In this document: positions 5,872 to 64,000 of the stretch, piece by piece
Layout of the letters: each line of letters begins with the position of its first letter
Position numbering within the stretch: the stretch's first letter is position 1
Virus record (IMG/VR): IMGVR_UViG_2065487013_000003
Coordinates: 3,047 to 67,046 of that record
Origin: a virus
DNA length: 64,000 nt
Direction: 5' to 3' (one strand)
Translations under genes and position numbers: made by a program
Notes under the pieces: model-generated
The model's input: the letters and a program-made list of their open reading frames with translations, nothing else
Told to the model about the DNA's origin: nothing
Database searches by the model: none

Positions 5872-6810
5872 ATGGGCTTTGCATTGCCTAACGGCTCGCA
5901 CGTCTATCTGGCGTCGGGCTATGATCCTGCGGTTCCATTTACAGGGGCGACTAATGCCGAACATGCCGTTGTCACGGTTGAATCAGGGGGCGGATTTGCT
6001 TCTGGCGACGTTGTTCACGTCAATTGTGACTGGACCGGAATTGATAACGTCGTCGCGCTGGTTGATGCCGTTGCTGGTTCGGCGGTAACCCTTCGCAACA
6101 TCAACACCACCAACACCGGAAAATTTCCTGCTGGTGGTGGAAGCGGTACTCTGCGTAAGGTCACCGAATGGACCGAAATCCCTCAGATCACCGAGGTGGC
6201 GAACGCGGGTGGCGAGCAGAACACCACGCAGATCCAGTTTTTGTCTGATGACCGTCAGCGTAACCTTAACACCTACAAATCAGCCAGTTCGCAGACCTAC
6301 ACCATTGCGCATGATTCATCGCTTCCGGTTTACCCGCTGCTGCGCAAGCTTGATGAGGATGAAGAAACGGTGGCGGCGTACATGTACGTGCCAAAAGCGA
6401 AAGAAAACCGCTACTGGGCGGCGACAGCTTCTTTCAATGATATTCCGCAGACAGCCGTAAACTCAGTTGAAACAGTAACCGCAGTTCTCAACCTTCAGTC
6501 TCCTGCTATGACGTTCTACAAAATCGATAACGTGACTACCCCAGCAGTACAGGTCACGGGGGTTACTCTCAACGAGACTAAGCTGGATCTGGATGCTGGC
6601 GAAACAGCTCAACTGGTCGCTGAAGTCACTCCGGCTGATGCCACAAATAAACAGGTCACCTGGTCAAGTTCGAATGAAGAAGTCGCCAAAGTTAGCGCCG
6701 ATGGGCTTGTGACGGCGATGGCTGGCGATGGCGGTTCAACGATTATCACCTGCACAACGGTAGACGGCAGTAAAACCGCGACCTGTGAAGTTACCGAAAC
6801 GGTAGCTTAA
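5872..6810 (+). CDS. Major tail tube protein with C-terminal Big_2 Ig domain
   Basis: LPNGSHV start; GGEQ...QFLSDD motif; C-terminal VTGVTLNETKLDL...TNKQVTWSSS. Confidence 0.9.
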   Translation: MGFALPNGSHVYLASGYDPAVPFTGATNAEHAVVTVESGGGFASGDVVHVNCDWTGIDNVVALVDAVAGSAVTLRNINTTNTGKFPAGGGSGTLRKVTEWTEIPQITEVANAGGEQNTTQIQFLSDDRQRNLNTYKSASSQTYTIAHDSSLPVYPLLRKLDEDEETVAAYMYVPKAKENRYWAATASFNDIPQTAVNSVETVTAVLNLQSPAMTFYKIDNVTTPAVQVTGVTLNETKLDLDAGETAQLVAEVTPADATNKQVTWSSSNEEVAKVSADGLVTAMAGDGGSTIITCTTVDGSKTATCEVTETVA

Positions 6811-6816
6811 TTACCG

Positions 6817-6838
6817 GCCCTCTTGTGAGGGCTTTTTT
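6817..6838 (+). terminator. Terminator after the tail tube gene
   Basis: GCCCTC-TTGT-GAGGGC followed by T6. Confidence 0.7.
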
Positions 6839-6858
6839 ATTTTGAGAAGGAAAACACA

Positions 6859-7170
6859 ATGGCAACTAAATTTGAGCTGCAACCGAAACCGACTTTTAAA
6901 GCCAACGTAGAGATCCCGCGAGCAGGGGAAGAGCCTGGCGTGCTGACTTTTACGTTCCGTCATAAGTCAGCGGATCAGATCAAAGAGATGGAAAAGCGTG
7001 AAGGGGCAACGGCAGTTGATTTTCTGTCTGAAATAATTGAGGGCTGGGCGCTGCCTCAACCTTACACCCGCGAAAACCTGACGGTGTTACTGAATAACTA
7101 CCTGAGCGCGGCAGGTGCAATCACCGAAAAATATTACGCCGAACTGATGGGGATCCGGGAAAAAAACTAA
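6859..7170 (+). CDS. Tail assembly chaperone (gpG-like)
   Basis: Between tube and tape measure; ends at slippery A_AAA_AAC. Confidence 0.85.
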   Translation: MATKFELQPKPTFKANVEIPRAGEEPGVLTFTFRHKSADQIKEMEKREGATAVDFLSEIIEGWALPQPYTRENLTVLLNNYLSAAGAITEKYYAELMGIREKN

Positions 7171-7481
7171 TAGCGGTTGCCTCTGCATTCTATACGCCTG
7201 AAGTGGCAGCGGAGGACATGGCCACCTTCGGGCTGACTGATGACGATTACGACGATGTGATCGTTCACGTTCTGCCTGATGTGTGGCCCGCCTTTTGCCT
7301 GTTCCAGTCGCTGTCTACGCAATGGCGCACTGGCTTTGGTGGCGCGACAGGACTTGATTATAACGTGCTGCCCTGGCTGATGCGCGTTCACGGCATCGAG
7401 GATGAGGCAACCGCCCTAAATGACATCCGTATCATGGAGCGCACCGCTCTGAAAACCATGCATAAAAAAGAGGTGGCCTGA
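7167..7481 (+). CDS. Tail assembly chaperone frameshift extension (gpT-like, DUF1799-like)
   Basis: The -1 frame is open from the slippery site; TQWRTGFGGATGLDY motif. Confidence 0.82.
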   Translation, partial: LIAVASAFYTPEVAAEDMATFGLTDDDYDDVIVHVLPDVWPAFCLFQSLSTQWRTGFGGATGLDYNVLPWLMRVHGIEDEATALNDIRIMERTALKTMHKKEVA

Positions 7482-10294
7482 TGAGTGATATCGCCACGAT
7501 CTCACTGCGTGTTAATACCAGCGGACTGGAAAAAGGCACGCAGGAGCTTGATAAATTCCGCCACGCAGCGAAAGGCGGGGCTGGATCCGCTGACGAACTG
7601 AGCCAGAGCGTTGATGAAACGCATCGCAGGGTGGAGGAACTGCGTAAGCGCCTGGCGAATAGTGAGGCTGTAACCAGGAAAAATGCCTCCGCTCAGGATG
7701 AGCTGGCGTCGGCGTTTTATAAGCAAATTGACAGCATAAAAAATGCCGCAAAAGAAACGGATAATATCGCGGCGATACGCTCCCGCCTTCATGCGGCGCA
7801 GAAATCAGGGAATCTGATCCAGGAAGACTATCTGGCGTTGCTGTCTGCAATCACAGCAAAACAGATCGAAGGCCGACGCGCAGAAGAAAGTGCAGCAGCG
7901 GCGCGGGAGGTTTTTCTCAAAAAACTGAAAGACCAGGTAGCAACCACGCGTCTTTCCCGCGAAGAACTGCTGCGCTACAGGGCTGAACAGCTGGGGGCAG
8001 GTTCGGCTGCTGAAATTTATATTCAGAAGCTGAAAAAGGCAGAAGAGGGTACTGCACGCTTTAATACCAGGACCGCTGCAGCGGGTAAAAACCTGCGCAC
8101 TCTGGCCGCTTCACTCGTCAGAAGCAACCTGGGCGGTGTGGCAGGTACAGGAACGTCTTTTCTTGGCAATATCGGGGCTTTGACACCGCAAGTTGCTCTT
8201 TTGGCGGGTGCAGTCGCAACGCTTGGAACCGCTTACTACAAAGGCCAGCAGGAAAGCAGCGAGTTTAATAAACAGCTCGCGCTGACGGGAAATTATGCTG
8301 GCCGTACAACCGGACAACTAAATAATCTGGCGAAAGCTATCTCAGGCAGTGGGATAACGCGAGGGGACGCAGCGGCGGCGCTGGCGAAAGTTGTCGGCAC
8401 AGGAAGCTTTGGGAGTAACCAGCTTGAGATGATTACCCGATCTGCCATCAGGCTGGAACAGGTAACGGGTCAGTCAGTAGATGCGACAGTAGGGCATTTT
8501 GCGCGGCTGCAAAATGAACCTCTCAGCGCGGCTAAGGAACTGGATCAGCAGCTTCACTTCCTGACCGCCAGCCAGCTTGAGCAGATTACCTCTCTTTCAC
8601 AGGTTGGTGATACCACCGGCGCGGCAAAAATCGCTATGGAAGCGTATGCCGACGCTATTCAAAATCGTACCACTGATATCACCAACAACCTGGGTTTTCT
8701 GGAATGGGGCTGGCGGGCTATCAAGCAGAAAGCCGCTGAAGCCTGGGATGCCATGCTGGGTATTGGGCGTCCTGAAACAATCGAAGACCAGATTGCAAAC
8801 CTACAGAAACGCGCCAGCAGAAAAATCCCTACGCCGTCAGGGATGAACAACTATGGGGCCGAAAAGTCACTGGATGAGCTGAAGGAGGAAAAATTTCAGG
8901 CGGATATTGCTGCGGCACGTGAAGACTCAGCTAGAAAAGCAGAAGAAACCCAAAAACGTATTTTCAACGACGACCAAAAATGGAAGACCCAGTACGAAAA
9001 CAAGGAAGAGCAGCATCAAAGACGGCTAGCTGAAATCCGTAATTCTTACGCTTCAAAAGCGGTGAAAGACGAGGCTATTCGTCGTGAGAATGAAAGTTAC
9101 GAGAAGAGTAAGCAGAAGGGGCTGAAGAAGGAAAAAACCTACACCGATGATTCTGCAACAAAGATGCTACAGGAATCATCGAAACGCCTGGCGGTACTGA
9201 AAGAGCAGGATGAAACAACCAAAAGCCTGACCTCAGAAGAAAAGCGTCTGCTGGAATTTAATCAGCAAATTGCCGACCTGAAGCAGAAAAGGATTTTAAC
9301 GGCTGATCAAAAAAGTCTTGTCGCCAGAAGTAGTGAGATCCGCGCAGCACTTGAGGCTGAAAGTGCAGAGGCTAAGCGGATTCAAAACATTAAGGAAATA
9401 GCAAAGGGCCATGAAACTTCCCTGAGATTCATACAGCAACAAAGCGCTCTTATCTCGGCTATGGACAGCGCCGCGGGAATGAGCAACCGACAAGCGCAGC
9501 GTCAAAAAGAGCGTGAGCAGCTCAAACTGATGAAAGCCTCTGAAGAGGATAAATCAGCAGCAAGCAACAAGCTTGAAGAGCGCTATGCGAAGGAGGATGA
9601 ACTACGCGGCGACTGGCTTGCAGGGGCTAAAAAGGGCTGGGCTGAGTATGAGGATTCAGTGACAAACGTTAATGAAAATATTGCTACTTTAACTCAGGGT
9701 GCCTTTATGGATATGAGTAAAAGCCTGAGCGATTTTTTCATTACTGGAAAGGCTCAATTTAGCGACTTTTTGACAACTTTCCTTAAGGGCATAACACAGA
9801 TGCTGACGCAATTGGCTTTGCTTAACACAGCTAAAGCAGCATTTGGAGGTACAGCGTTTGGCAATCTTTTAGGTATCAAACAGGCATATGTAGGAGGTTA
9901 CATCCCTGAATTCGATGTGGGTGGCTATACCGGCGCAGGCGGTAAGTATGAACCTAAAGGGATCGTTCACGGCGGCGAATTCGTGTTTACCAAAGAGGCT
10001 ACCAGTGCGATCGGTGTCGAGAACCTCTATGCCATGATGCATAACGCAAAGGGTTATGCCGGTGGTGGTGTGGTTGGGCGGGCACCAATGTATGGGCTTT
10101 CTGGTGGCGGGTTAACGGTGAATGTTGATGCGCCTGTTTCAATTACGCATGAAAACGGAGTTGGGGTTAATAGTTCAAACATGAAAGGCGCTGAGAACAT
10201 CGGTAGCCTGGTGAAATCAGTGGTCCAGCAGGAAGTAACAACCAGGTTACGTAAAGAATTGACAGAGGGCGGTGTATTGTACAAACGAGCCTGA
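7481..10294 (+). CDS. H: Tape measure protein (lambda gpH family)
   Basis: 937 aa helical; AWDAMLGIGR and GIVHGGEFVF motifs. Confidence 0.92.
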   Translation: MSDIATISLRVNTSGLEKGTQELDKFRHAAKGGAGSADELSQSVDETHRRVEELRKRLANSEAVTRKNASAQDELASAFYKQIDSIKNAAKETDNIAAIRSRLHAAQKSGNLIQEDYLALLSAITAKQIEGRRAEESAAAAREVFLKKLKDQVATTRLSREELLRYRAEQLGAGSAAEIYIQKLKKAEEGTARFNTRTAAAGKNLRTLAASLVRSNLGGVAGTGTSFLGNIGALTPQVALLAGAVATLGTAYYKGQQESSEFNKQLALTGNYAGRTTGQLNNLAKAISGSGITRGDAAAALAKVVGTGSFGSNQLEMITRSAIRLEQVTGQSVDATVGHFARLQNEPLSAAKELDQQLHFLTASQLEQITSLSQVGDTTGAAKIAMEAYADAIQNRTTDITNNLGFLEWGWRAIKQKAAEAWDAMLGIGRPETIEDQIANLQKRASRKIPTPSGMNNYGAEKSLDELKEEKFQADIAAAREDSARKAEETQKRIFNDDQKWKTQYENKEEQHQRRLAEIRNSYASKAVKDEAIRRENESYEKSKQKGLKKEKTYTDDSATKMLQESSKRLAVLKEQDETTKSLTSEEKRLLEFNQQIADLKQKRILTADQKSLVARSSEIRAALEAESAEAKRIQNIKEIAKGHETSLRFIQQQSALISAMDSAAGMSNRQAQRQKEREQLKLMKASEEDKSAASNKLEERYAKEDELRGDWLAGAKKGWAEYEDSVTNVNENIATLTQGAFMDMSKSLSDFFITGKAQFSDFLTTFLKGITQMLTQLALLNTAKAAFGGTAFGNLLGIKQAYVGGYIPEFDVGGYTGAGGKYEPKGIVHGGEFVFTKEATSAIGVENLYAMMHNAKGYAGGGVVGRAPMYGLSGGGLTVNVDAPVSITHENGVGVNSSNMKGAENIGSLVKSVVQQEVTTRLRKELTEGGVLYKRA

Positions 10295-10433
10295 GTGAAT
10301 TATTGATTATGCCCCCCTATCTGAACTAGCTGGTTAGCATTACTTCAATATCCATTTGTTTAATGTGTGTTTAAGGTGAGAGAGTTCGGTGATGATAACA
10401 TTTTGAAACTTTTGGTTTAGTGATGGAAACACA

Positions 10434-10973
10434 ATGGAAATAATCATAGGTTTAGCGATTTTAGCTCTCATTCCTGCCACAATTGCGTGCCGCAAAGGAA
10501 GAAGTTTTCTGTGGTGGTGGGTGTATGGTGTTTTATTCTTTATCATTGCTTTTATCCATTCGCTGCTTATCAAGACAGATGTTCGCGTTGCTGAGAGAGA
10601 GCAAATCAGTAAAGGTATGGTCAAGTGCCCATTCTGTGCAGAGGTGATCAAGCCAGAAGCGATTAAGTGTAAGCATTGCGGAAGTGATCTTGATGATGCC
10701 CATAATGCTCTTGCTCTCAAAAATTTCACTCCTAGTGATATGCCGATAGAATCTTTCATAATAAGAAAGAAAGATGACTTTAGAGGATCGGAGACTTTTC
10801 ATATTAATGAGAATTCTGTAGTCACCTTGGCTACGAATCTAAAAAAAGCAAATCCAAAAATGGACCCTGTTACAGTGATGGTAAAATTTCAAGTTGAGAT
10901 TGAAGAAATCAAAATGTCTCTTCCTGTTGGGTTAAGAGAACAGTTTATGCATTTGTATCAGGCTCAATTTTAA
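10434..10973 (+). CDS. Moron: membrane protein with zinc ribbon (possible superinfection-immunity type)
   Basis: AT-rich; two N-terminal TM segments; CPFC...CKHC; inserted between H and M. Confidence 0.75.
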   Translation: MEIIIGLAILALIPATIACRKGRSFLWWWVYGVLFFIIAFIHSLLIKTDVRVAEREQISKGMVKCPFCAEVIKPEAIKCKHCGSDLDDAHNALALKNFTPSDMPIESFIIRKKDDFRGSETFHINENSVVTLATNLKKANPKMDPVTVMVKFQVEIEEIKMSLPVGLREQFMHLYQAQF

Positions 10974-20977: not shown

Positions 20978-21007
20978 TTTAACAAAAACAGATAAGGGCT
21001 GGCAGAA

Positions 21008-21037
21008 ACAGGAATCGTATTCGGTCTCTTTTTATCT
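21008..21037 (+). other. att core equal to the 3' end of the sdsR(ryeB)/ryeA sRNA locus, in an attP-like context
   Basis: ACAGGAATCGTATTCGGTCTCTTTTTATCT matches the SdsR terminator region as recalled; the 5' GACCGAAT arm and the chromosomal flanks are absent. Confidence 0.82.
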
Positions 21038-21110: not shown

Positions 21111-22196
21111 CTAAACCATAACATACTCTGCACCGCGTGCGTCCAGGTATTTTTTGGTCATTGTTAAATTTTTGTGGCCGAGCAAACGTTGAGCAAATTC
21201 CTCTCCGCGTTCCTTTTCATAGAGCCTGCTCGCCAGACTTCTGATCTCATGGAAAGGCGGTGGGTTAGGTCCGAATTTTAACCCGGTCGAATCCCTTATC
21301 TCTGCGAAGGCCTGGGTGAGCCCGTCAGGAGTTAGTGGCCCCGGCTTTCTCCCACCACGGCGAACCGGCGAGTAAAGCATAAAGTCGGAGGGGTTATTTA
21401 CCCGGCATCGCTCAATGACATCCTGCAACACAAGCCCGGCGACGTCCAGCCTCAAATCAAGGGGGAGCGCCAGTTTGTGACCTGTTTTCTCCTGAGTAAC
21501 GAAAAGCCTCCCGTCTTTAACGTCACTGAATCTGAACAGCGAAATATCCTCACGCCGCTGGCCGGTGACCAGTGCCAGATCGCATGCATTTGGTGCCCAG
21601 TCAGAATGAGTTAACGCGGCCTGGCGAATGACGTTGAAATGTTCGAGCAACAGGCGCTCTCGCTTAACTTTCGGTGTCGGCGTTCGCGTCGGCTCGGCCG
21701 GGTTCCTGTCGACATGTCCTTCTACGATCGCCTCCCTGAAGATGTCCATTAAGACAGAACGCAGCCCGGAAGCCATGCTCTTTTTATCGCAGAGAATGTA
21801 CGATTCAAGAAATGAGGCGATGTCCTTTGTCGTAACAGAAGCGAGGGGAATATTGCCGAACTCTTCCTTAATAGTGGCGATCTGGTTTCGCCTGACCTTC
21901 ATCGTGTTTGGTTTCAGCTCGCGCCGCTCGAGAATCACCTCGTAACGCTCCAGCCATGCGGCCACTGTGAAAGTGGGCACGTCTTTTATGCGATCCAGGA
22001 GAGAAGAGGGAAGGTAATTCTGATCGATGTAGTTATTGGCCTCAATGGCCTGGGCAACAGCGTCCTTGCGATCAATCCGGCCAAGAGAGATCTCCTGCCC
22101 GGTCACCGGATTGCGCCAGCTGTAAAGTCTGTCTCTTTTACGATAGGTCAGGTTACGTGGCAGGTTAGCGTCGTAACGTACTGGCCTTTTCGCCAT
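21111..22196 (-). CDS. int: Tyrosine integrase (lambda Int family)
   Basis: LPRNLTYRK arm-binding domain; TGQR, FHEIRS, LGH, KYL catalytic residues. Confidence 0.97.
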   Translation of the reverse strand: MAKRPVRYDANLPRNLTYRKRDRLYSWRNPVTGQEISLGRIDRKDAVAQAIEANNYIDQNYLPSSLLDRIKDVPTFTVAAWLERYEVILERRELKPNTMKVRRNQIATIKEEFGNIPLASVTTKDIASFLESYILCDKKSMASGLRSVLMDIFREAIVEGHVDRNPAEPTRTPTPKVKRERLLLEHFNVIRQAALTHSDWAPNACDLALVTGQRREDISLFRFSDVKDGRLFVTQEKTGHKLALPLDLRLDVAGLVLQDVIERCRVNNPSDFMLYSPVRRGGRKPGPLTPDGLTQAFAEIRDSTGLKFGPNPPPFHEIRSLASRLYEKERGEEFAQRLLGHKNLTMTKKYLDARGAEYVMV

Positions 22197-23947: not shown

Positions 23948-24162
23948 TGTTCGGCTCCAAACCGCCCGTTAAGGCGGCCAGTTTTAACGACGAACTCAAG
24001 GAGGCTAACTCCCAGAGCTTCAATTTTCTTGTGATGCTTGTTGATGATGGGAGGCACCGTTTCGTTCCAGTTAGGCTTTGGCTTCTTGCGCATGGTCTGC
24101 TGAATTTCTTCGGTGCAGCGGCGGCAGGCGGCGCGGATGGCGTTGTCTGTTTCTGGCGTCAT
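23944..24162 (-). CDS. Hypothetical early protein
   Basis: GGAGG RBS and ATGA coupling. Confidence 0.65.
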   Translation of the reverse strand: MTPETDNAIRAACRRCTEEIQQTMRKKPKPNWNETVPPIINKHHKKIEALGVSLLEFVVKTGRLNGRFGAEQ

Positions 24163-58120: not shown

Positions 58121-58499
58121 TTTTATCAGCAGGATGATCGGCGTGCCGTGGTCTAACCGCGCCTGCTCCTTCGAAAAGACTGACTGCTGGGGGCTGGTGG
58201 TGCTGTATTACCGGCACGCTCTCCGAATTGAGCTGCACCAGACGCCGGACTACGAAGCCGGTGAGGACTTCTTTACCTGCTATCGGGGTGATGTTGTCTT
58301 CTGGCGCCAGGTCGATAAGCCTGCCGATGGCGGGATATTCGTCGGGTACCGCGGAGCTCAACCGGCACATGTTGGCCTGGTTCTGAACCGTCAGGCGCTG
58401 CACTCGCGCGGCGAGAATGGAAGCGTGCGCATGGACTCGTTGCTGGTCATTCAGCGTGCATTCACTAAAGTGGAGTTTTTCGAATATGGCGCTGGTTGA
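58083..58499 (+). CDS. NlpC/P60 tail tip protein
   Basis: DCWGLVVLYY...HVG; start uncertain. Confidence 0.82.
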   Translation: MTQRNTPACNTSDFISRMIGVPWSNRACSFEKTDCWGLVVLYYRHALRIELHQTPDYEAGEDFFTCYRGDVVFWRQVDKPADGGIFVGYRGAQPAHVGLVLNRQALHSRGENGSVRMDSLLVIQRAFTKVEFFEYGAG

Positions 58500-60963
58500 G
58501 ATATCGAACTTTCCAGGAACGCCTAAGCTGCGTTGCAGGGTGCCAAACGGCACCCTTTTTTATGACTGGCTGGCGGCCAATGACGCTACTTTCCACCGCG
58601 ACCTGCTGATCGTCCGCAATGGCGTTAAGCTGGGCGACGATGACGAGCTGGCGTTTGAGCTGAGCGAACTGGACAATATCCAGATTTTCGACCAGCCAAA
58701 GGGCATTGTCAGTGACATCCTGAGCCCGATTTTCAAAGTTGTCGGGTCTGTATTTTCCTTCCTGGCGCCTAAGCCGGCAATCGCAAATACCGGTGGTAAC
58801 ACCGTCGACTCGCCAAACAACAGCCTGACCGGTCAGACAAACACCGCGCGCGTCTATAAAGCCAAGCCGGATATCTACGGCCAGATTCGCTCATACCCTG
58901 ACCTGATTCAGGAGTCGGTATTCGAATACATTCGCCAGGATGCCTTTGACGGCGGACTGAAGTTTGTCACTGAGTGGATGTGTATTGGGCTTGGTAAATA
59001 TGACCGTGAGTCTATTCGTTACTCAGAATCAAGCCTGGGTAGCATGGCTGGTGCTGAATACCAATTCATCGAGCCTGGTGAAGTCATCCCCCAGATTGTT
59101 GAGGGATACGGGTTTGATGACGTTGACGGGCAGGAAGTCCCAGGGCAGAACGAAGCGGGTGATTTCCCGATCGAGACGGCGACGGCCAACACCGTCGTCA
59201 GCGGGACATATTCAGGCGGCCAGATTGCGATGAAAATCGTCAAACAGGCTGATTTTGATTACTTCATGGGTCTGGTGCTGCCGCACGCGGTAACGTTCAC
59301 CATCAACGTGACATATAACACTGCATCCGGATCAGTAACGACTGATGCGACATTCTCAGGAACACTGATCTCCGCGGTCGAAACGAACGACGGTGCTGTG
59401 GTTAACCCGGTGCGATGGTACACGTTTACGATGAGCGACCTGCAGGGCCCGCAGGACATCCCGGCGACTGCGACCATAAACACCACGAAGTTCATTCTGA
59501 ACGACAACGAGGCGCTGGTTGTGGGGCCGTTCTTCTCACCGGTTGAGTCGTCTCAGCTCTGGCTGCACACACAGTCGAGCCTGGGCGGGAAGAAACAGAC
59601 TAACTGGAAGGTTGTTATCTGGAAAATCGACGACGATTACAACCAGATCCCCGGCACTACGCAGACGTTTACCTATTACCAGGGAACGCCGCACGACCAT
59701 ACGAGCGAAGTGTTTTACCGCACCGATAAACTTACTCCGGCAGCCGGGTTCGGCAAATACGCAATTAGCTTCCAGCGTACGGATAACTCCAGCGACGCGT
59801 CAGTTCTGAAGGTTGAAGAGATTCACGCTATCAACATCAGGACCAATGTCGTTCATCCTACTGACACGCTGGTGCGCGTGAAGGTGAGGGCGACAGAGAA
59901 CGCGCTGGGGAGCCGGGAACGCAAATATAACGCTCTGGTGACACGGCACACCATCACGTACGACCTGGACACGCAGACGGTGGATTACACGCTGCGACCT
60001 TCTCGCTCGTTCGCTGATGCAGTGGCGCACACCTGGCTGATTATGGGCGAGCAGCCGGTCAGCAGCATTGACCTCTACGGGCTGTACTCGATCGCCGAAA
60101 GCCTCCCTGATGAGCGCCTGGGTTACTTCGACTACACGTTTGATGACGAGAACGACTCGCTGGGCGACCGCGTGCAGGCGATCTGCAATGCGGCGTCGGT
60201 GGTGGCGTACTGGGATGATGGAGTGCTGACTTTTACCCGTGATCAGAAGGTCGATTACCCGGCGGCCGTATTCAACCGGGCCAACATGAAGACGGACGAG
60301 TACAAAATGACGTACGAAGCCACTCTTCCAGGCGGCTACGACGGCGTGCAGGTGTCCTATGTTCACCCGACGACGAACAACAAGACATACATCAACTACC
60401 GCGTGCTGAACGGCGCTATCGTCGAACAGGAAGCGGAGAACCCGAACAAACTGGAGATAGTTGGTTTCCGTAATGAGTACCAGGCGCGGGAGCGCGCGTT
60501 GCGTGAAACAAAGCGACTGATCTACTCCCGGGTGAAGATGAATGCCAAAGTGTTCGAAGACGGCATTATCCAAGTCGGAAGCGTCATTCAGATGCCTGAT
60601 ATCTACGACAGCAACCAGCAGCAGGGTTACATAACCGGCCGCGCCGGGAATAACTTCGATACCAGCGAGCCGATCGCGTTTGCCGGTTCAATGTATGTGC
60701 TGGTGACCGACAGCATGGGTAATCCGACGCTGCGCTATCCGGCTACGGCCCGCAGCGACACGAAGTACGGATTCACTGCAGCAATACCCAACATTCAGCT
60801 CAACATATGGAACGGAGACACTGTGCAGCTCCCGTCGCGCTATCTCATTGCGACAGTAGAGGAACTGGACAGTCAGCTATGGACGGTCAACAGCATTAAA
60901 CCGAACACAGATAACACGGTATCTCTGACCGTCGCGGAATACAGCGACGCCATCTACCAATAA
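58486..60963 (+). CDS. Central tail tip / host specificity protein (TipJ-like)
   Basis: NNSLTGQTNTAR, PDIYGQIRSYPDL, YWDDGVLTFTRD; start ATG 58486. Confidence 0.87.
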   Translation: MALVEISNFPGTPKLRCRVPNGTLFYDWLAANDATFHRDLLIVRNGVKLGDDDELAFELSELDNIQIFDQPKGIVSDILSPIFKVVGSVFSFLAPKPAIANTGGNTVDSPNNSLTGQTNTARVYKAKPDIYGQIRSYPDLIQESVFEYIRQDAFDGGLKFVTEWMCIGLGKYDRESIRYSESSLGSMAGAEYQFIEPGEVIPQIVEGYGFDDVDGQEVPGQNEAGDFPIETATANTVVSGTYSGGQIAMKIVKQADFDYFMGLVLPHAVTFTINVTYNTASGSVTTDATFSGTLISAVETNDGAVVNPVRWYTFTMSDLQGPQDIPATATINTTKFILNDNEALVVGPFFSPVESSQLWLHTQSSLGGKKQTNWKVVIWKIDDDYNQIPGTTQTFTYYQGTPHDHTSEVFYRTDKLTPAAGFGKYAISFQRTDNSSDASVLKVEEIHAINIRTNVVHPTDTLVRVKVRATENALGSRERKYNALVTRHTITYDLDTQTVDYTLRPSRSFADAVAHTWLIMGEQPVSSIDLYGLYSIAESLPDERLGYFDYTFDDENDSLGDRVQAICNAASVVAYWDDGVLTFTRDQKVDYPAAVFNRANMKTDEYKMTYEATLPGGYDGVQVSYVHPTTNNKTYINYRVLNGAIVEQEAENPNKLEIVGFRNEYQARERALRETKRLIYSRVKMNAKVFEDGIIQVGSVIQMPDIYDSNQQQGYITGRAGNNFDTSEPIAFAGSMYVLVTDSMGNPTLRYPATARSDTKYGFTAAIPNIQLNIWNGDTVQLPSRYLIATVEELDSQLWTVNSIKPNTDNTVSLTVAEYSDAIYQ

Positions 60964-61021: not shown

Positions 61022-63463
61022 ATGGCTACTACACCTACTCAGAACTCGGTTCCAAGTGAATCTCCAATCGACCTGAAGTTTAATGCAGGGAAAATCGATG
61101 AGTTTGTTACCTCTATGGGGTGGACATACACCGATCGATTCGGCGTGAAGCACTACACTATAGAAGGCATAAACTATCTCGCTCAGCAAGTTATGAATGC
61201 CTTCGGGTATGTCACGTTATCAGGCGTGACATTCACTACAGGTGCTACGGTTTCCAACCCAAACGAAGTTCTTTTTAACACCGCAGATAATACCTATTAC
61301 AAATGGACAGGGTCATTTGCTGGAGGTGCAAAGGTAGTTCCAGCCAACTCAACACCTCAGTCATCAGGAGGTGTTGGTGTAGGTAAATGGCTTAGTGTTG
61401 GCGATACGGTTTTGCGTACTGAGTTGCAGCGCGGCCAGTTTCGCTCAGACGCAACATCATGCTATTACGTTGCTGGATTTGTAATCGACCAAACTACAAA
61501 CAACCGTGACGCGGCATATGCATTCCCTGGTACGATTTACATCCCGAAAGGATTAACAATTCGCTGCAACTTTCTTCCTGAGGATGATGTGCGAAAGTTC
61601 ACAGGAGAGGGTGCAATCTTAACTCGCGATCCGTGGGGGTATGAGCATACATTTGATGTTGCAAAGGCCAGTCATGGCAGTACCTTTACCGTCAGCGGCG
61701 TCATTCACCAGGGGATGGAGCGTAAAGGAACTGAAAATAAGAGTATTGGTGTTATTGGAGATTCCATTACCGATGGTGCCTGGGGTAAGCAAACGTGGAC
61801 TATGAACCCAAATACCGGGGGTGCACTGCGAAACTTAAACTCAACCAATTATGATCATTCAGCAAATGGAGGAAGCCACTCCTGGTTTGCTCATTTCGTT
61901 ACGACATTAAATAAAGTTATCAGTCGCTGGACCGCTAACCCAATATTTAGTGGTTACAACTGTGCCGAATCTGGCATGAAAATGATTGATGGTTGGGCAT
62001 ACCGTAACTTTGACTACGGATTTTTCCAGAATGCAGCTTATGGTAATAAGGCTCCTGACTCATTACTTATTTCCATGGGGTGGAATGATGTTGATGGGGT
62101 AAATTTCGAGAGCTATCTTGATAACTTCGACGCGCTCATCAGAAAGGCATGGGGATATGGATGCGCCGTTGGGCTAGTTACATGCAACATGAATGAAAGC
62201 ACACGCTCAGGGCTGGAGGGCGCTGTAAAACGGACGCTCACAACAAAATATCCTGGCATAGAATACTATGATTTAGGAACATACCTCCGTAAGAGGGCCA
62301 GCTCCGATTTGAGGAACCTTAAAAACTATTACGTAAAATCAGACAATACCTTCGACTATACCCACCCTCAGCCACTTGGTCAGGCGGATATGGGTAACGC
62401 AATGCTTTGGGAGGTATGCAAAGACACGTTTATCCCATCCGTAAAACCTGGAGAAATGATATCTTGGGCAAACGCTGATAAATTCTGGGATTGTGTAGGC
62501 GTTACGTCTGGCACGCATTATCAATTTACGTGGGCTAATGCAGCGGGTACGCCGGCACTGAATAAGATGGGGAAGGTCGCACAAGCTATTGTCTCATCTG
62601 AAAACGTCACTCTTTCTACTTTTATTTTCTGCGAAGAAGATGATATGAATCTCTTCATCCTTGAGCCTTATTCTCGGGATGCTGATTTTACTGCATCAGG
62701 AAGAAACCACATTATTGATGTCCAATCCCCTGCGGGTAAGAATATGGCAGAGACTGCCCCTGAAACACTCAGGAACTTGCATGTTGCACAGAGGCTTGCA
62801 TCTGGTGTGTTGGGTGAGAAAAAAACATTAACAACATATGTAGGAAGGCTTCGTTATGGAATTAACTTTTTGACGATACGTTATGATGGCAGTCCTACAT
62901 CAGTGTATGTGCCAGCTATAGTTACCGGTTCTATGAAATCCTCGAAAGTCGGTTTTAACAACGTTCGCCTTGATAAAGTGGCGGGTTTCAATGGCCCTAT
63001 GCTTACCAGGATCAACTCCCTAGATGGCATAACGTCAAATCTGATGGATGGGTCGCAGTACGCGTCACTGCCTAACTGGTTTAGCGCGGGTCAGAATTTG
63101 GTTGGCAGCCTTTCAGTCAATGAACCACTTACTGACCAGTGCGGAGTAATCCTTTTTTATGATCCAGATGAGAAAAATGGGTACGCTGTACAGAGAAGCG
63201 GGGCAGTGCTACGGGTCGGTTCGATGGTTAGCGGAGTCGTTAGTTCATGGGCAACTACGACTATCGACGCCACTAAAACGTTCCAGATTTATTTTTATCA
63301 GACGACGAGCGTATTGAATGGAATTACTATGAACATTATAGGCTCCACAAGCACCTTTACCGGTACTTATGGAAAGCCAGGTGGTGTCATTGGTGTTCTA
63401 AACTCATCCGCGGCATCTGCAACGTTTAACCTTAGCTACAACGCTTATGATATGGGCTCTTAA
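61022..63463 (+). CDS. Tailspike with SGNH/GDSL esterase domain
   Basis: Conserved N-terminal virion-attachment part (DLKFNAGKIDEFV, YYKWTG); GDSITDG, GWND and DYTHP SGNH blocks. Confidence 0.88.
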   Translation: MATTPTQNSVPSESPIDLKFNAGKIDEFVTSMGWTYTDRFGVKHYTIEGINYLAQQVMNAFGYVTLSGVTFTTGATVSNPNEVLFNTADNTYYKWTGSFAGGAKVVPANSTPQSSGGVGVGKWLSVGDTVLRTELQRGQFRSDATSCYYVAGFVIDQTTNNRDAAYAFPGTIYIPKGLTIRCNFLPEDDVRKFTGEGAILTRDPWGYEHTFDVAKASHGSTFTVSGVIHQGMERKGTENKSIGVIGDSITDGAWGKQTWTMNPNTGGALRNLNSTNYDHSANGGSHSWFAHFVTTLNKVISRWTANPIFSGYNCAESGMKMIDGWAYRNFDYGFFQNAAYGNKAPDSLLISMGWNDVDGVNFESYLDNFDALIRKAWGYGCAVGLVTCNMNESTRSGLEGAVKRTLTTKYPGIEYYDLGTYLRKRASSDLRNLKNYYVKSDNTFDYTHPQPLGQADMGNAMLWEVCKDTFIPSVKPGEMISWANADKFWDCVGVTSGTHYQFTWANAAGTPALNKMGKVAQAIVSSENVTLSTFIFCEEDDMNLFILEPYSRDADFTASGRNHIIDVQSPAGKNMAETAPETLRNLHVAQRLASGVLGEKKTLTTYVGRLRYGINFLTIRYDGSPTSVYVPAIVTGSMKSSKVGFNNVRLDKVAGFNGPMLTRINSLDGITSNLMDGSQYASLPNWFSAGQNLVGSLSVNEPLTDQCGVILFYDPDEKNGYAVQRSGAVLRVGSMVSGVVSSWATTTIDATKTFQIYFYQTTSVLNGITMNIIGSTSTFTGTYGKPGGVIGVLNSSAASATFNLSYNAYDMGS

Positions 63464-63525
63464 ATGACTTTATGACATGGATGTCGAATGTTACTATTCG
63501 TCATTATCTCGTTGTGGAGGTTTGG

Positions 63526-63684
63526 ATGAAGATTAACAGGTGGGTAATCAGAGCGTGTGCATTAATATCATTTTTATCTCTGCTAAGCGGTCAAAGTAAA
63601 TTTCCAGAATATTTATTTTGGGTTAGCGTTGCAATGCTATTAATCTGGGGTCATACAGAGTGGACCGATCACAAAAAAGATTAG
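63526..63684 (+). CDS. Small two-TM membrane protein (52 aa)
   Basis: GGAGG RBS before ATG 63526; two hydrophobic segments. Confidence 0.55.
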   Translation: MKINRWVIRACALISFLSLLSGQSKFPEYLFWVSVAMLLIWGHTEWTDHKKD

Positions 63685-63727
63685 GACGTTAATTTTAATA
63701 TAAAAACGGATAGCCATACGTATCAAT

Positions 63728-63750
63728 AAAAAGGAGGGCTATCACCCTCC
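63728..63750 (-). terminator. Terminator of the acyltransferase transcript
   Basis: GGAGGG-TGATAG-CCCTCC followed by T5 on the minus strand. Confidence 0.75.
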
Positions 63751-63755
63751 GTTAT

Positions 63756-64000
63756 TCATGCTGCTTGTTCTTGTCTGATTTTTGTTTTCTGTTTGAGCCA
63801 TGCGATGGATGGCTTCTCGATATTCTTATGAATGAAGATACCAACAATAACAGATATGGATATCAGAGCGAAGGACATAACAATGGCAACATCCTTATCA
63901 TTATGGTTCCTTTCTATGACATCATTCAGTAGGTGAGCAAAGTAGATGTGTGAGATATATATGCTATACGATGCGTCTCCAATAAGATGCATGAAGTTGC
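63756..64000 (-). CDS. Acyltransferase-3 (O-antigen acetylase-like), C-terminal end; 5' part beyond the window
   Basis: LIGDASYSIYISH...IHKNIEKP is the typical AT3 C-terminal signature. Confidence 0.8.
   Translation of the reverse strand, partial: NFMHLIGDASYSIYISHIYFAHLLNDVIERNHNDKDVAIVMSFALISISVIVGIFIHKNIEKPSIAWLKQKTKIRQEQAA

Follow-up and report, generated by a model that had tools for sequence, protein, structure and literature searches.

A tailspike gene and a convergent acyltransferase gene

The stretch analysed here (the window) comprises 64,000 nucleotides of viral DNA, bases 3047-67046 of the 70,925-bp IMG/VR virus record IMGVR_UViG_2065487013_000003, and ends with a gene for a phage tailspike followed, on the opposite strand, by the 3' part of a gene for an O-acyltransferase of the AT3 family. 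A first-pass annotation, made from the letters of the window, had seen in these two genes a linked writer/eraser pair acting on the same surface polysaccharide. The AT3 gene passes the window end by about 770 bp, and it was followed into bases 60000-70925 of the record, referred to below as L002 (window coordinate = L002 coordinate + 56953). The features under study are the following.

61022..63463, plus strand: tailspike, 813 amino acids (aa), supported by Pfam, the match to PDB entry 4QNL, invariant catalytic columns and a structural model
63472..63684, plus strand: small open reading frame (ORF) of 70 aa (52 aa from an internal ATG) with two hydrophobic segments, directly 3' of the spike gene
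63733..63750, minus strand: intrinsic terminator of the AT3 gene (G+C-rich hairpin plus T-run), found by a terminator scan right after the AT3 stop codon
63756..64000, minus strand: 3' end (last 80 codons) of the gene for an AT3-only O-acyltransferase; the whole gene is L002:6803-7816, window-equivalent 63756-64769

The tailspike is a gp63.1-type SGNH protein

The spike is composed of an N-terminal anchor (residues 1-137), G7C domain 3, an SGNH domain (about 240-460), a G7C galactose-binding-like domain and a C-terminal beta domain. Pfam recognized Tail_spike_N at residues 57-128, Gp63_3rd_G7C at 150-214 and G7C_GBD at 489-637, with the G7C-specific domains above the gathering cut-off (PF21562, 93.9 bits; PF21988, 102.5 bits). 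Lipase_GDSL matches over residues 242-454 stayed below the cut-off (17 and 15 bits), as they do in several members of the family, and PHROG 21878 covers the protein end to end. The best PDB match in a phmmer search was 4QNL, the gp63.1 protein of phage G7C (E 3.6e-158), which is homologous over residues 60-807 and about 42-45% identical to the spike; the likeness to this SGNH spike drawn by the first-pass annotation is thereby borne out. When an AlphaFold model of the spike (mean pLDDT 74.6) was compared with known structures by Foldseek, 4QNL again came out on top (TMq 0.77, E 3.6e-73), the next hits being SGNH carbohydrate acetyl-esterases.

The catalytic set that had been read from the sequence (GDS, GxND, DxxH) is complete. 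The motifs are located at residues 246-248 (GDS), 353-356 (GWND) and 445-448 (DYTH), and their surroundings align with 4QNL residue for residue in the phmmer alignment. S248, G283/G284, N355, D445 and H448 are invariant in an alignment of 18 sequences that includes G7C and homologues from Enterobacter, Citrobacter, Providencia, Proteus, Vibrio and E. coli prophages. SGNH blocks I (GDS), II (Gly), III (GxND) and V (DxxH) are all present at homologous positions, and since the motifs are invariant across the aligned homologues, they belong to homologous catalytic blocks and a chance match is excluded.

Residues 1-135 have a different affinity, being 64-80% identical to spikes of temperate Enterobacter/Erwinia siphophages, for example CobraSix. 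Since the anchor resembles local siphophage spikes and the remainder resembles gp63.1, the spike combines a gp63.1-type body with a local anchor. Judging by its homology, the SGNH domain most likely deacetylates an O-acetylated surface polysaccharide rather than cutting it, and this polysaccharide is probably the O-antigen.

The small ORF that follows the spike gene (63472-63684) produced zero matches in Pfam, PHROG or NCBIfam. Copies of it, 63-72% identical, were found by tblastn after related SGNH spikes in loci L012, L013 and L017, whatever cassette comes next. As these copies accompany related SGNH spikes irrespective of the cassette, we assign the small ORF to the spike module and not to the AT3 gene.

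The acyltransferase gene is complete and has the traits of a moron

The first-pass annotation had described the next substantial gene as convergent and ending with an AT3 signature, and it had proposed that the full gene be retrieved. The 80-aa piece within the window gives a weak match to the Pfam AT3 family (E 1.4e-4) and matches PHROG 3333, "O-acetyltransferase", at 3.7e-13. In the parent record the gene is intact, and the full protein matches PF01757 with 109 bits (cut-off 31) over profile positions 3-322 of 326 and PHROG 3333 at 3.3e-54. Translation from a GTG yields 337 aa, while an ATG at 64763, the start used by database homologues, yields 335 aa. The protein has nine hydrophobic segments and carries the motifs R12-X10-H23, FFxxSG (residues 44-49) and R69-V-R-R72; among 116 homologues, each of R12, H23, R69 and R72 is retained in 102-116. 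An R/K-X10-H motif in the first transmembrane segment and an RXXR motif in the first cytoplasmic loop are listed as functionally essential in AT3 proteins (PMC9558356). There is no fused SGNH domain, i.e., the architecture is AT3-only, as in the Oac protein of phage Sf6. The SGNH domain of the spike was considered as the missing periplasmic partner of the AT3-only protein; this was rejected, the spike being a late virion protein without a signal peptide or membrane anchor.

Relative to the spike gene and the late operon, the AT3 gene is convergent. It is full-length and located inside the prophage, 2.7 kb from its right attachment site, attR (the prophage limits are given below), so that two of the outcomes named by the first-pass annotation as refuting its reading, a truncated gene and a position outside attR, do not apply. 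Its GC content is 0.39, compared with 0.55-0.58 in the neighbouring umuDC and SRAP genes. It thus shows the traits of a moron: a position inside the att sites and next to the spike, the opposite strand with a terminator of its own, and a foreign composition. A tblastn search of the phage collection with the AT3 protein returned distant matches only (at most 32% identity). In megablast, only the umuDC and SRAP parts of the stretch from the spike to attR had matches among E. coli genomes and phages. NCBIfam had zero matches for the spike, the AT3 protein, the small ORF and the UmuD-like protein.

The AT3 gene occupies an exchangeable cassette slot

The interval that contains the AT3 gene is bounded by the spike on one side and a umuD'C-SRAP module on the other. 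In L012 and L014, which hold the closest IMG/VR relatives of the spike (76% identical), DNA homology continues through the spike and the small ORF to L002:6658, is interrupted over the AT3 gene and restarts at L002:7838 in the umuD promoter region. Pfam identified GtrA, a GT2 GtrB and a GtrII-type GtrC in the interrupted interval of these loci. In 80 lineage-matched prophages, the slot is filled by gtr or AT3 genes behind non-SGNH spikes. Thus, the AT3 gene is a cassette in a generic conversion slot that holds gtrABC or unrelated AT3 genes in sister prophages, whatever the fold of the spike. The left edge of the cassette can be placed at the terminator hairpin, where homology to the AT3 cassettes of L145 and L004 begins (L002:6779).

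Other occupants of the slot were also observed. AT3 proteins of 610-682 aa are encoded in L054, L065 and L098, a size that fits fused AT3-SGNH acetyltransferases of the OafA/OafB-like kind. In CobraSix (L133, NC_071003), a 430-aa hypothetical protein is encoded after the spike at 6013-7305, and polytopic proteins of 432-445 aa with 8-9 hydrophobic segments fill the slot in L116 and L120. The slot proteins of CobraSix, L116 and L120 may represent a third kind of conversion gene.

AT3 genes are not enriched behind SGNH spikes

The first-pass annotation had suggested examining the co-occurrence of SGNH spikes and AT3 genes. Two samples were taken. The SGNH sample (41 IMG/VR loci and one genome locus) was found with the SGNH spike alignment. 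The control sample was based on the distal tail protein of the present prophage (58417..60963) as the lineage marker: of its 390 IMG/VR relatives, 80 prophages with 93% or more identity in this protein were fetched, with any spike. Genes after the spike were classified by jackhmmer from Pfam-verified seeds, and the loci were dereplicated into clusters of spike body plus cassette at 90% identity.

Behind SGNH spikes, the next gene is AT3 in 11 fetched loci (12 with the present prophage) and gtrABC in 15 loci of the SGNH-targeted sample (19 over both samples), while virulent or other phages with SGNH spikes have neither. Behind the non-SGNH spikes of the same chassis, gtrABC is the usual next gene and AT3 was found in 13 loci. 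Ten of the non-SGNH spikes located beside AT3 genes were checked against Pfam: none has a GDSL or G7C domain, and two have beta-helix or pectate-lyase signatures. After dereplication, SGNH spikes were followed by AT3 in 8 units, gtr in 5 and other genes in 11, and non-SGNH spikes by AT3 in 12, gtr in 26 and other genes in 4. Within these samples, which are small and of modest power, and of which the SGNH set is the broader in phylogeny, no enrichment of AT3 behind SGNH spikes was found (8/24 vs 12/42 units, Fisher p = 0.78), and the suggested co-occurrence was not upheld.

Individual loci point in the same direction. One cluster of SGNH spikes (790 aa) occurs with AT3 and with two different gtr cassettes. 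Where other SGNH spikes have an AT3 neighbour, its identity to the present AT3 gene does not exceed 29%, or no alignment can be made. Spike relatives at 52-82% identity are followed by gtrABC or by nothing and have no close AT3 partner; among the nearer relatives checked individually, P0129 has gtr, and P0130 and P0133 have no cassette. In 401 species-representative genomes of the family, SGNH spikes were found in just 2, too sparse for statistics; a profile scan of genome contigs with the spike alignment was dominated by the generic GDSITDGA pattern and likewise gave only 2 loci.

The AT3 lineage travels with a non-SGNH spike body

The closest relatives of the AT3 protein are proteins of Enterobacter hormaechei. 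One of them (P0006, 91% aa identity) is convergent to a 923-aa spike that has another N-terminal part and no SGNH similarity, and belongs to a different prophage with a holin-endolysin block. A second relative (P0007, 90%) is located on the same chassis as the present prophage and is convergent to an 815-aa spike that resembles the present spike in its anchor only (49% over residues 1-140); the body of this spike is 94% identical to that of the 923-aa spike of P0006. A third (P0008, 87%) lies in a P22-like context with Arc/Mnt-type genes; its convergent neighbour is a fragment of a spike, with 85% identity to the body found in the spikes of P0006 and P0007. Two chassis share the AT3 gene and this spike body as a single block of 3,043 bp, at 88.9% identity. 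The copies of the unit are as follows.

L004:10001-13043, L145:729-3771 and L146:1643-3214: unit of an AT3 gene and a non-SGNH spike body, on three phage chassis with different anchors

The match of the present AT3 cassette to these blocks has exact limits, the terminator hairpin (L002:6779) on one side and the start codon on the other. Among more distant relatives, one with 78% identity sits in plain chromosome and one with 46% identity adjoins a pectate-lyase-type spike. This AT3 lineage is thus matched to one spike body, a non-esterase one, and presumably to one O-antigen type. By analogy with G7C, which uses an esterase, and Alt63, which uses a lyase, the present SGNH spike is probably an alternative attack on the same O-antigen type.

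The combination found in the window also recurs. In an isolate sequencing run (X4), the end of the tail protein gene, the spike, the small ORF and the AT3 gene lie on one 27.5-kb contig at about 96% identity; the contig joins the host flank without the umuDC-SRAP module (joint 7825 to 10697). Metagenome runs carry the spike-to-AT3 stretch too, the best of them being a termite sample from which this DNA may stem; none of the runs listed for the locus is an RNA run. The pair is retained only in near-identical copies of the whole prophage end.

Comparison with known systems

A tailspike with an adjoining gene that modifies the surface polysaccharide is a known kind of serotype-conversion arrangement and ordinary in itself. 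The gp63.1 protein of G7C (PDB 4QNL) is an SGNH esterase that removes acetyl groups from the O-antigen of E. coli 4s, and the present spike has the same G7C Pfam domains and SGNH blocks. G7C, however, is a virulent N4-like podovirus without conversion genes, whereas the present body sits on the anchor of a temperate Cobrasixvirus-like siphophage. G7C needs O-acetylation of its receptor, and in Alt63, which infects the same E. coli 4s O-antigen host, the esterase is replaced by a lyase (PMC10743462).

The tailspike (gene 14) and oac of phage Sf6 offer the closest layout from the side of the acyltransferase: an AT3-only protein is likewise encoded next to the spike near the prophage end, and the R/K-X10-H and RXXR motifs are common to both. 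Sf6 Oac acetylates the O-antigen used by the Sf6 spike and thereby blocks its endorhamnosidase and superinfection (PMC9558356). There are three differences: the Sf6 spike is an endorhamnosidase with a beta-helix while the present one is of the SGNH esterase type; Sf6 Oac is too distant from the present AT3 protein for tblastn at E 1e-5; and, unlike oac, the present AT3 gene is separated from the att site by the umuD'C-SRAP module.

Salmonella phage epsilon15 is the one temperate phage with a shown esterase domain on its spike, an SGNH "petal" that deacetylates the O-antigen, and its lysogeny alters O-acetylation (bioRxiv 10.64898/2026.07.31.742079; PMC9558356). The direction is opposite, since epsilon15 is proposed to inhibit the host AT3 protein WbaK and so to remove the mark, while the present prophage brings an AT3 gene; the epsilon15 spike has an endorhamnosidase besides. 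The gtrABC cassettes of P22-like and related prophages take the same slot in sister prophages, between conserved flanks, but they comprise three genes, for the addition of glucose, where the present prophage has a single gene, for the predicted addition of an acyl group. Enterobacter phage vB_EclS_CobraSix, the isolated relative of the chassis, has the same order of tail protein, spike, UmuD-like protein, UmuC and integrase and an anchor 64% identical to the present one; its spike body differs, and its slot is without AT3. In Klebsiella prophages, SGNH receptor-binding proteins are common, acetyltransferases are present in 5-30%, and the interplay of acetylation and deacetylation has been discussed in a 2026 paper (PMC13123978).

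A probable conversion cassette beside an esterase-type spike

With a probability of about 0.7, we read the locus as a gp63.1-type spike plus an Sf6-like AT3 moron in a generic conversion slot, rather than a dedicated pair, the chassis being a Cobrasixvirus-like temperate siphophage in an Enterobacter-type chromosome and the stretch its receptor-recognition and lysogenic-conversion end. Since the slot is filled by gtrABC or AT3 whatever the spike, the adjacency of the two genes reflects slot architecture and a common host O-antigen type and not a co-evolved esterase/acyltransferase pair. As far as sequence comparison indicates, the AT3 gene follows the O-antigen type of the host and not the esterase chemistry. 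The spike, encoded at the end of the late operon and predicted to be trimeric, would deacetylate the host O-antigen at adsorption. In the lysogen, the AT3 gene would be expressed and its product would, like Sf6 Oac, O-acylate the O-antigen repeat. Such acylation would change the serotype and make the lysogen a poor receptor for incoming phages, those of its own kind included. The added group may either mask the site of the spike or be its substrate; arguments for masking come from the classical model, from the exchange of AT3 for gtrABC in the slot and from the example of epsilon15.

The two parts of the proposed writer/eraser link therefore fare differently. The specific linkage is not supported, as neither enrichment nor co-inheritance was seen in the loci sampled. 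On the other hand, the spike and the AT3 protein probably act on the same surface polysaccharide, the O-antigen, because the alternative cassette of the slot, gtrABC, modifies the O-antigen and because close AT3 relatives move as a unit with a spike body.

Three points weigh against our interpretation. First, the target of the spike could be a capsule or another glycan and not the O-antigen; SGNH receptor-binding proteins of Klebsiella track K-loci (PMC13123978). Second, when only cassette-bearing units are counted, the AT3:gtr ratio is 8:5 behind SGNH spikes and 12:26 behind the others (odds ratio 3.5, p = 0.10), a weak trend in small samples that would be compatible with a weak real association of SGNH spikes with AT3. 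Third, other samples contain the spike-AT3 pair at about 96% identity, a persistence compatible with either selection on the pair or one circulating prophage.

The latter two points are also what would be expected if the pair acted on a single mark, with the AT3 protein adding exactly the O-acetyl group that is taken off by the SGNH spike of the same phage. The spike would then be a counter-measure to this very AT3 protein: the prophage would install a shield against rivals and hold the only key. Lysogens would be shielded from depolymerase-type phages, for example those with the spike body that is usual beside this AT3 lineage, and only phages with an esterase spike would still recognize them, to be stopped by repressor immunity. 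The dependence of G7C-type spikes on an O-acetylated receptor (PMC10743462) agrees with such a scheme. Likewise, the AT3 lineage is otherwise tied to a non-SGNH body on three chassis, and an esterase spike could counter the acetylation made there; the isolate copy keeps the pair even without umuDC-SRAP. We nevertheless consider a single mark unlikely. Lysogens would adsorb the phage's own progeny, and a naive host must bear the mark before infection, which makes the phage's own AT3 gene redundant. Further, the nearest relatives of the SGNH spike have gtrABC or nothing, one SGNH spike cluster occurs with both AT3 and gtr cassettes, and in epsilon15 the effect of lysogeny on O-acetylation is suppression and not addition (bioRxiv 10.64898/2026.07.31.742079; PMC9558356).

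It is similarly improbable that the two proteins have separate substrates, with the spike acting on capsule, enterobacterial common antigen or another glycan and the AT3 protein on the O-antigen, or the reverse, and with the two genes being neighbours as exchangeable cargo of the late-operon end. The association of Klebsiella prophage SGNH receptor-binding proteins with capsule loci (PMC13123978), the many different glycans acylated by AT3 proteins (PMC9558356) and the lack of a statistical link between spike type and cassette type are in line with this possibility. It has to contend with the O-antigen being both the substrate of gtrABC, the alternative in the same slot, and that of G7C gp63.1 (PMC10743462), and with the unit of AT3 gene and spike body moving as a 3-kb block among three chassis, which argues that it is matched to one host glycan. 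Finally, that one partner is non-functional, the AT3 gene as a moron in decay or the spike as a binding protein with a dead esterase domain, is very improbable: neither reading frame is shortened, no catalytic or motif residue is missing or varies within its family, the att sites are intact with the structural gene set complete, and the pair is conserved in several samples.

New here are the precise slot, the lack of a detectable SGNH-specific association and, on three chassis, the unit of AT3 gene and non-SGNH body. Serotype, vaccine epitopes and the host range of phages are set by the O-acetylation of surface glycans, and for the prediction of host range our reading of the locus means that conversion cassettes track the host glycan type and not the chemistry of the spike. 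The locus is a natural construct that combines a predicted esterase spike and an acyltransferase on one inducible prophage; with the same AT3 lineage located beside a non-esterase spike elsewhere, it offers a convenient system in which to ask whether phage-borne acetylation blocks or feeds a deacetylating spike.

Prophage limits and neighbouring genes

A repeat search and annotation of the genes around the locus gave the following features.

21005-21037 (record 24051-24083), no strand: attL core, 33-bp exact direct repeat
67463-67495, window-equivalent (record 70509-70541): attR, the partner 33-bp repeat
21111..22196, minus strand: tyrosine integrase, 361 aa (Pfam Phage_integrase, Phage_int_M, Arm-DNA-bind_1)
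58417..60963, plus strand: distal tail protein, 848 aa (PHROG 469, J/TipJ-related), directly upstream of the spike
64867-67141, window-equivalent, past the window end (L002:7914-10188): SOS module, between the AT3 gene and attR

The integrase gene is located 70 bp from the attL repeat, and the prophage between the two 33-bp repeats is 46.5 kb long. It contains genes for terminase, portal, capsid, tape measure, a J-related tail protein, the spike, the AT3 protein, a UmuD-like protein, UmuC and an SRAP peptidase. The SOS module consists of a near-consensus LexA box, the UmuD-like protein (103 aa, PHROG 3469), UmuC (430 aa) and the convergent SRAP peptidase gene; the same trio is also found 3' of the slot in many sister prophages.

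The attachment site may be sdsR/ryeA, as suggested by the loose ends of contigs from other samples, which run from sdsR-like 3' sequence into the att core; Rfam searches at attR and attL, with gathering and with E-value thresholds, returned zero matches and did not confirm it. A second, lambda-like prophage extends from position 1 to about 21,000 of the record, in tandem with the present one, and the 33-bp core is common to both.

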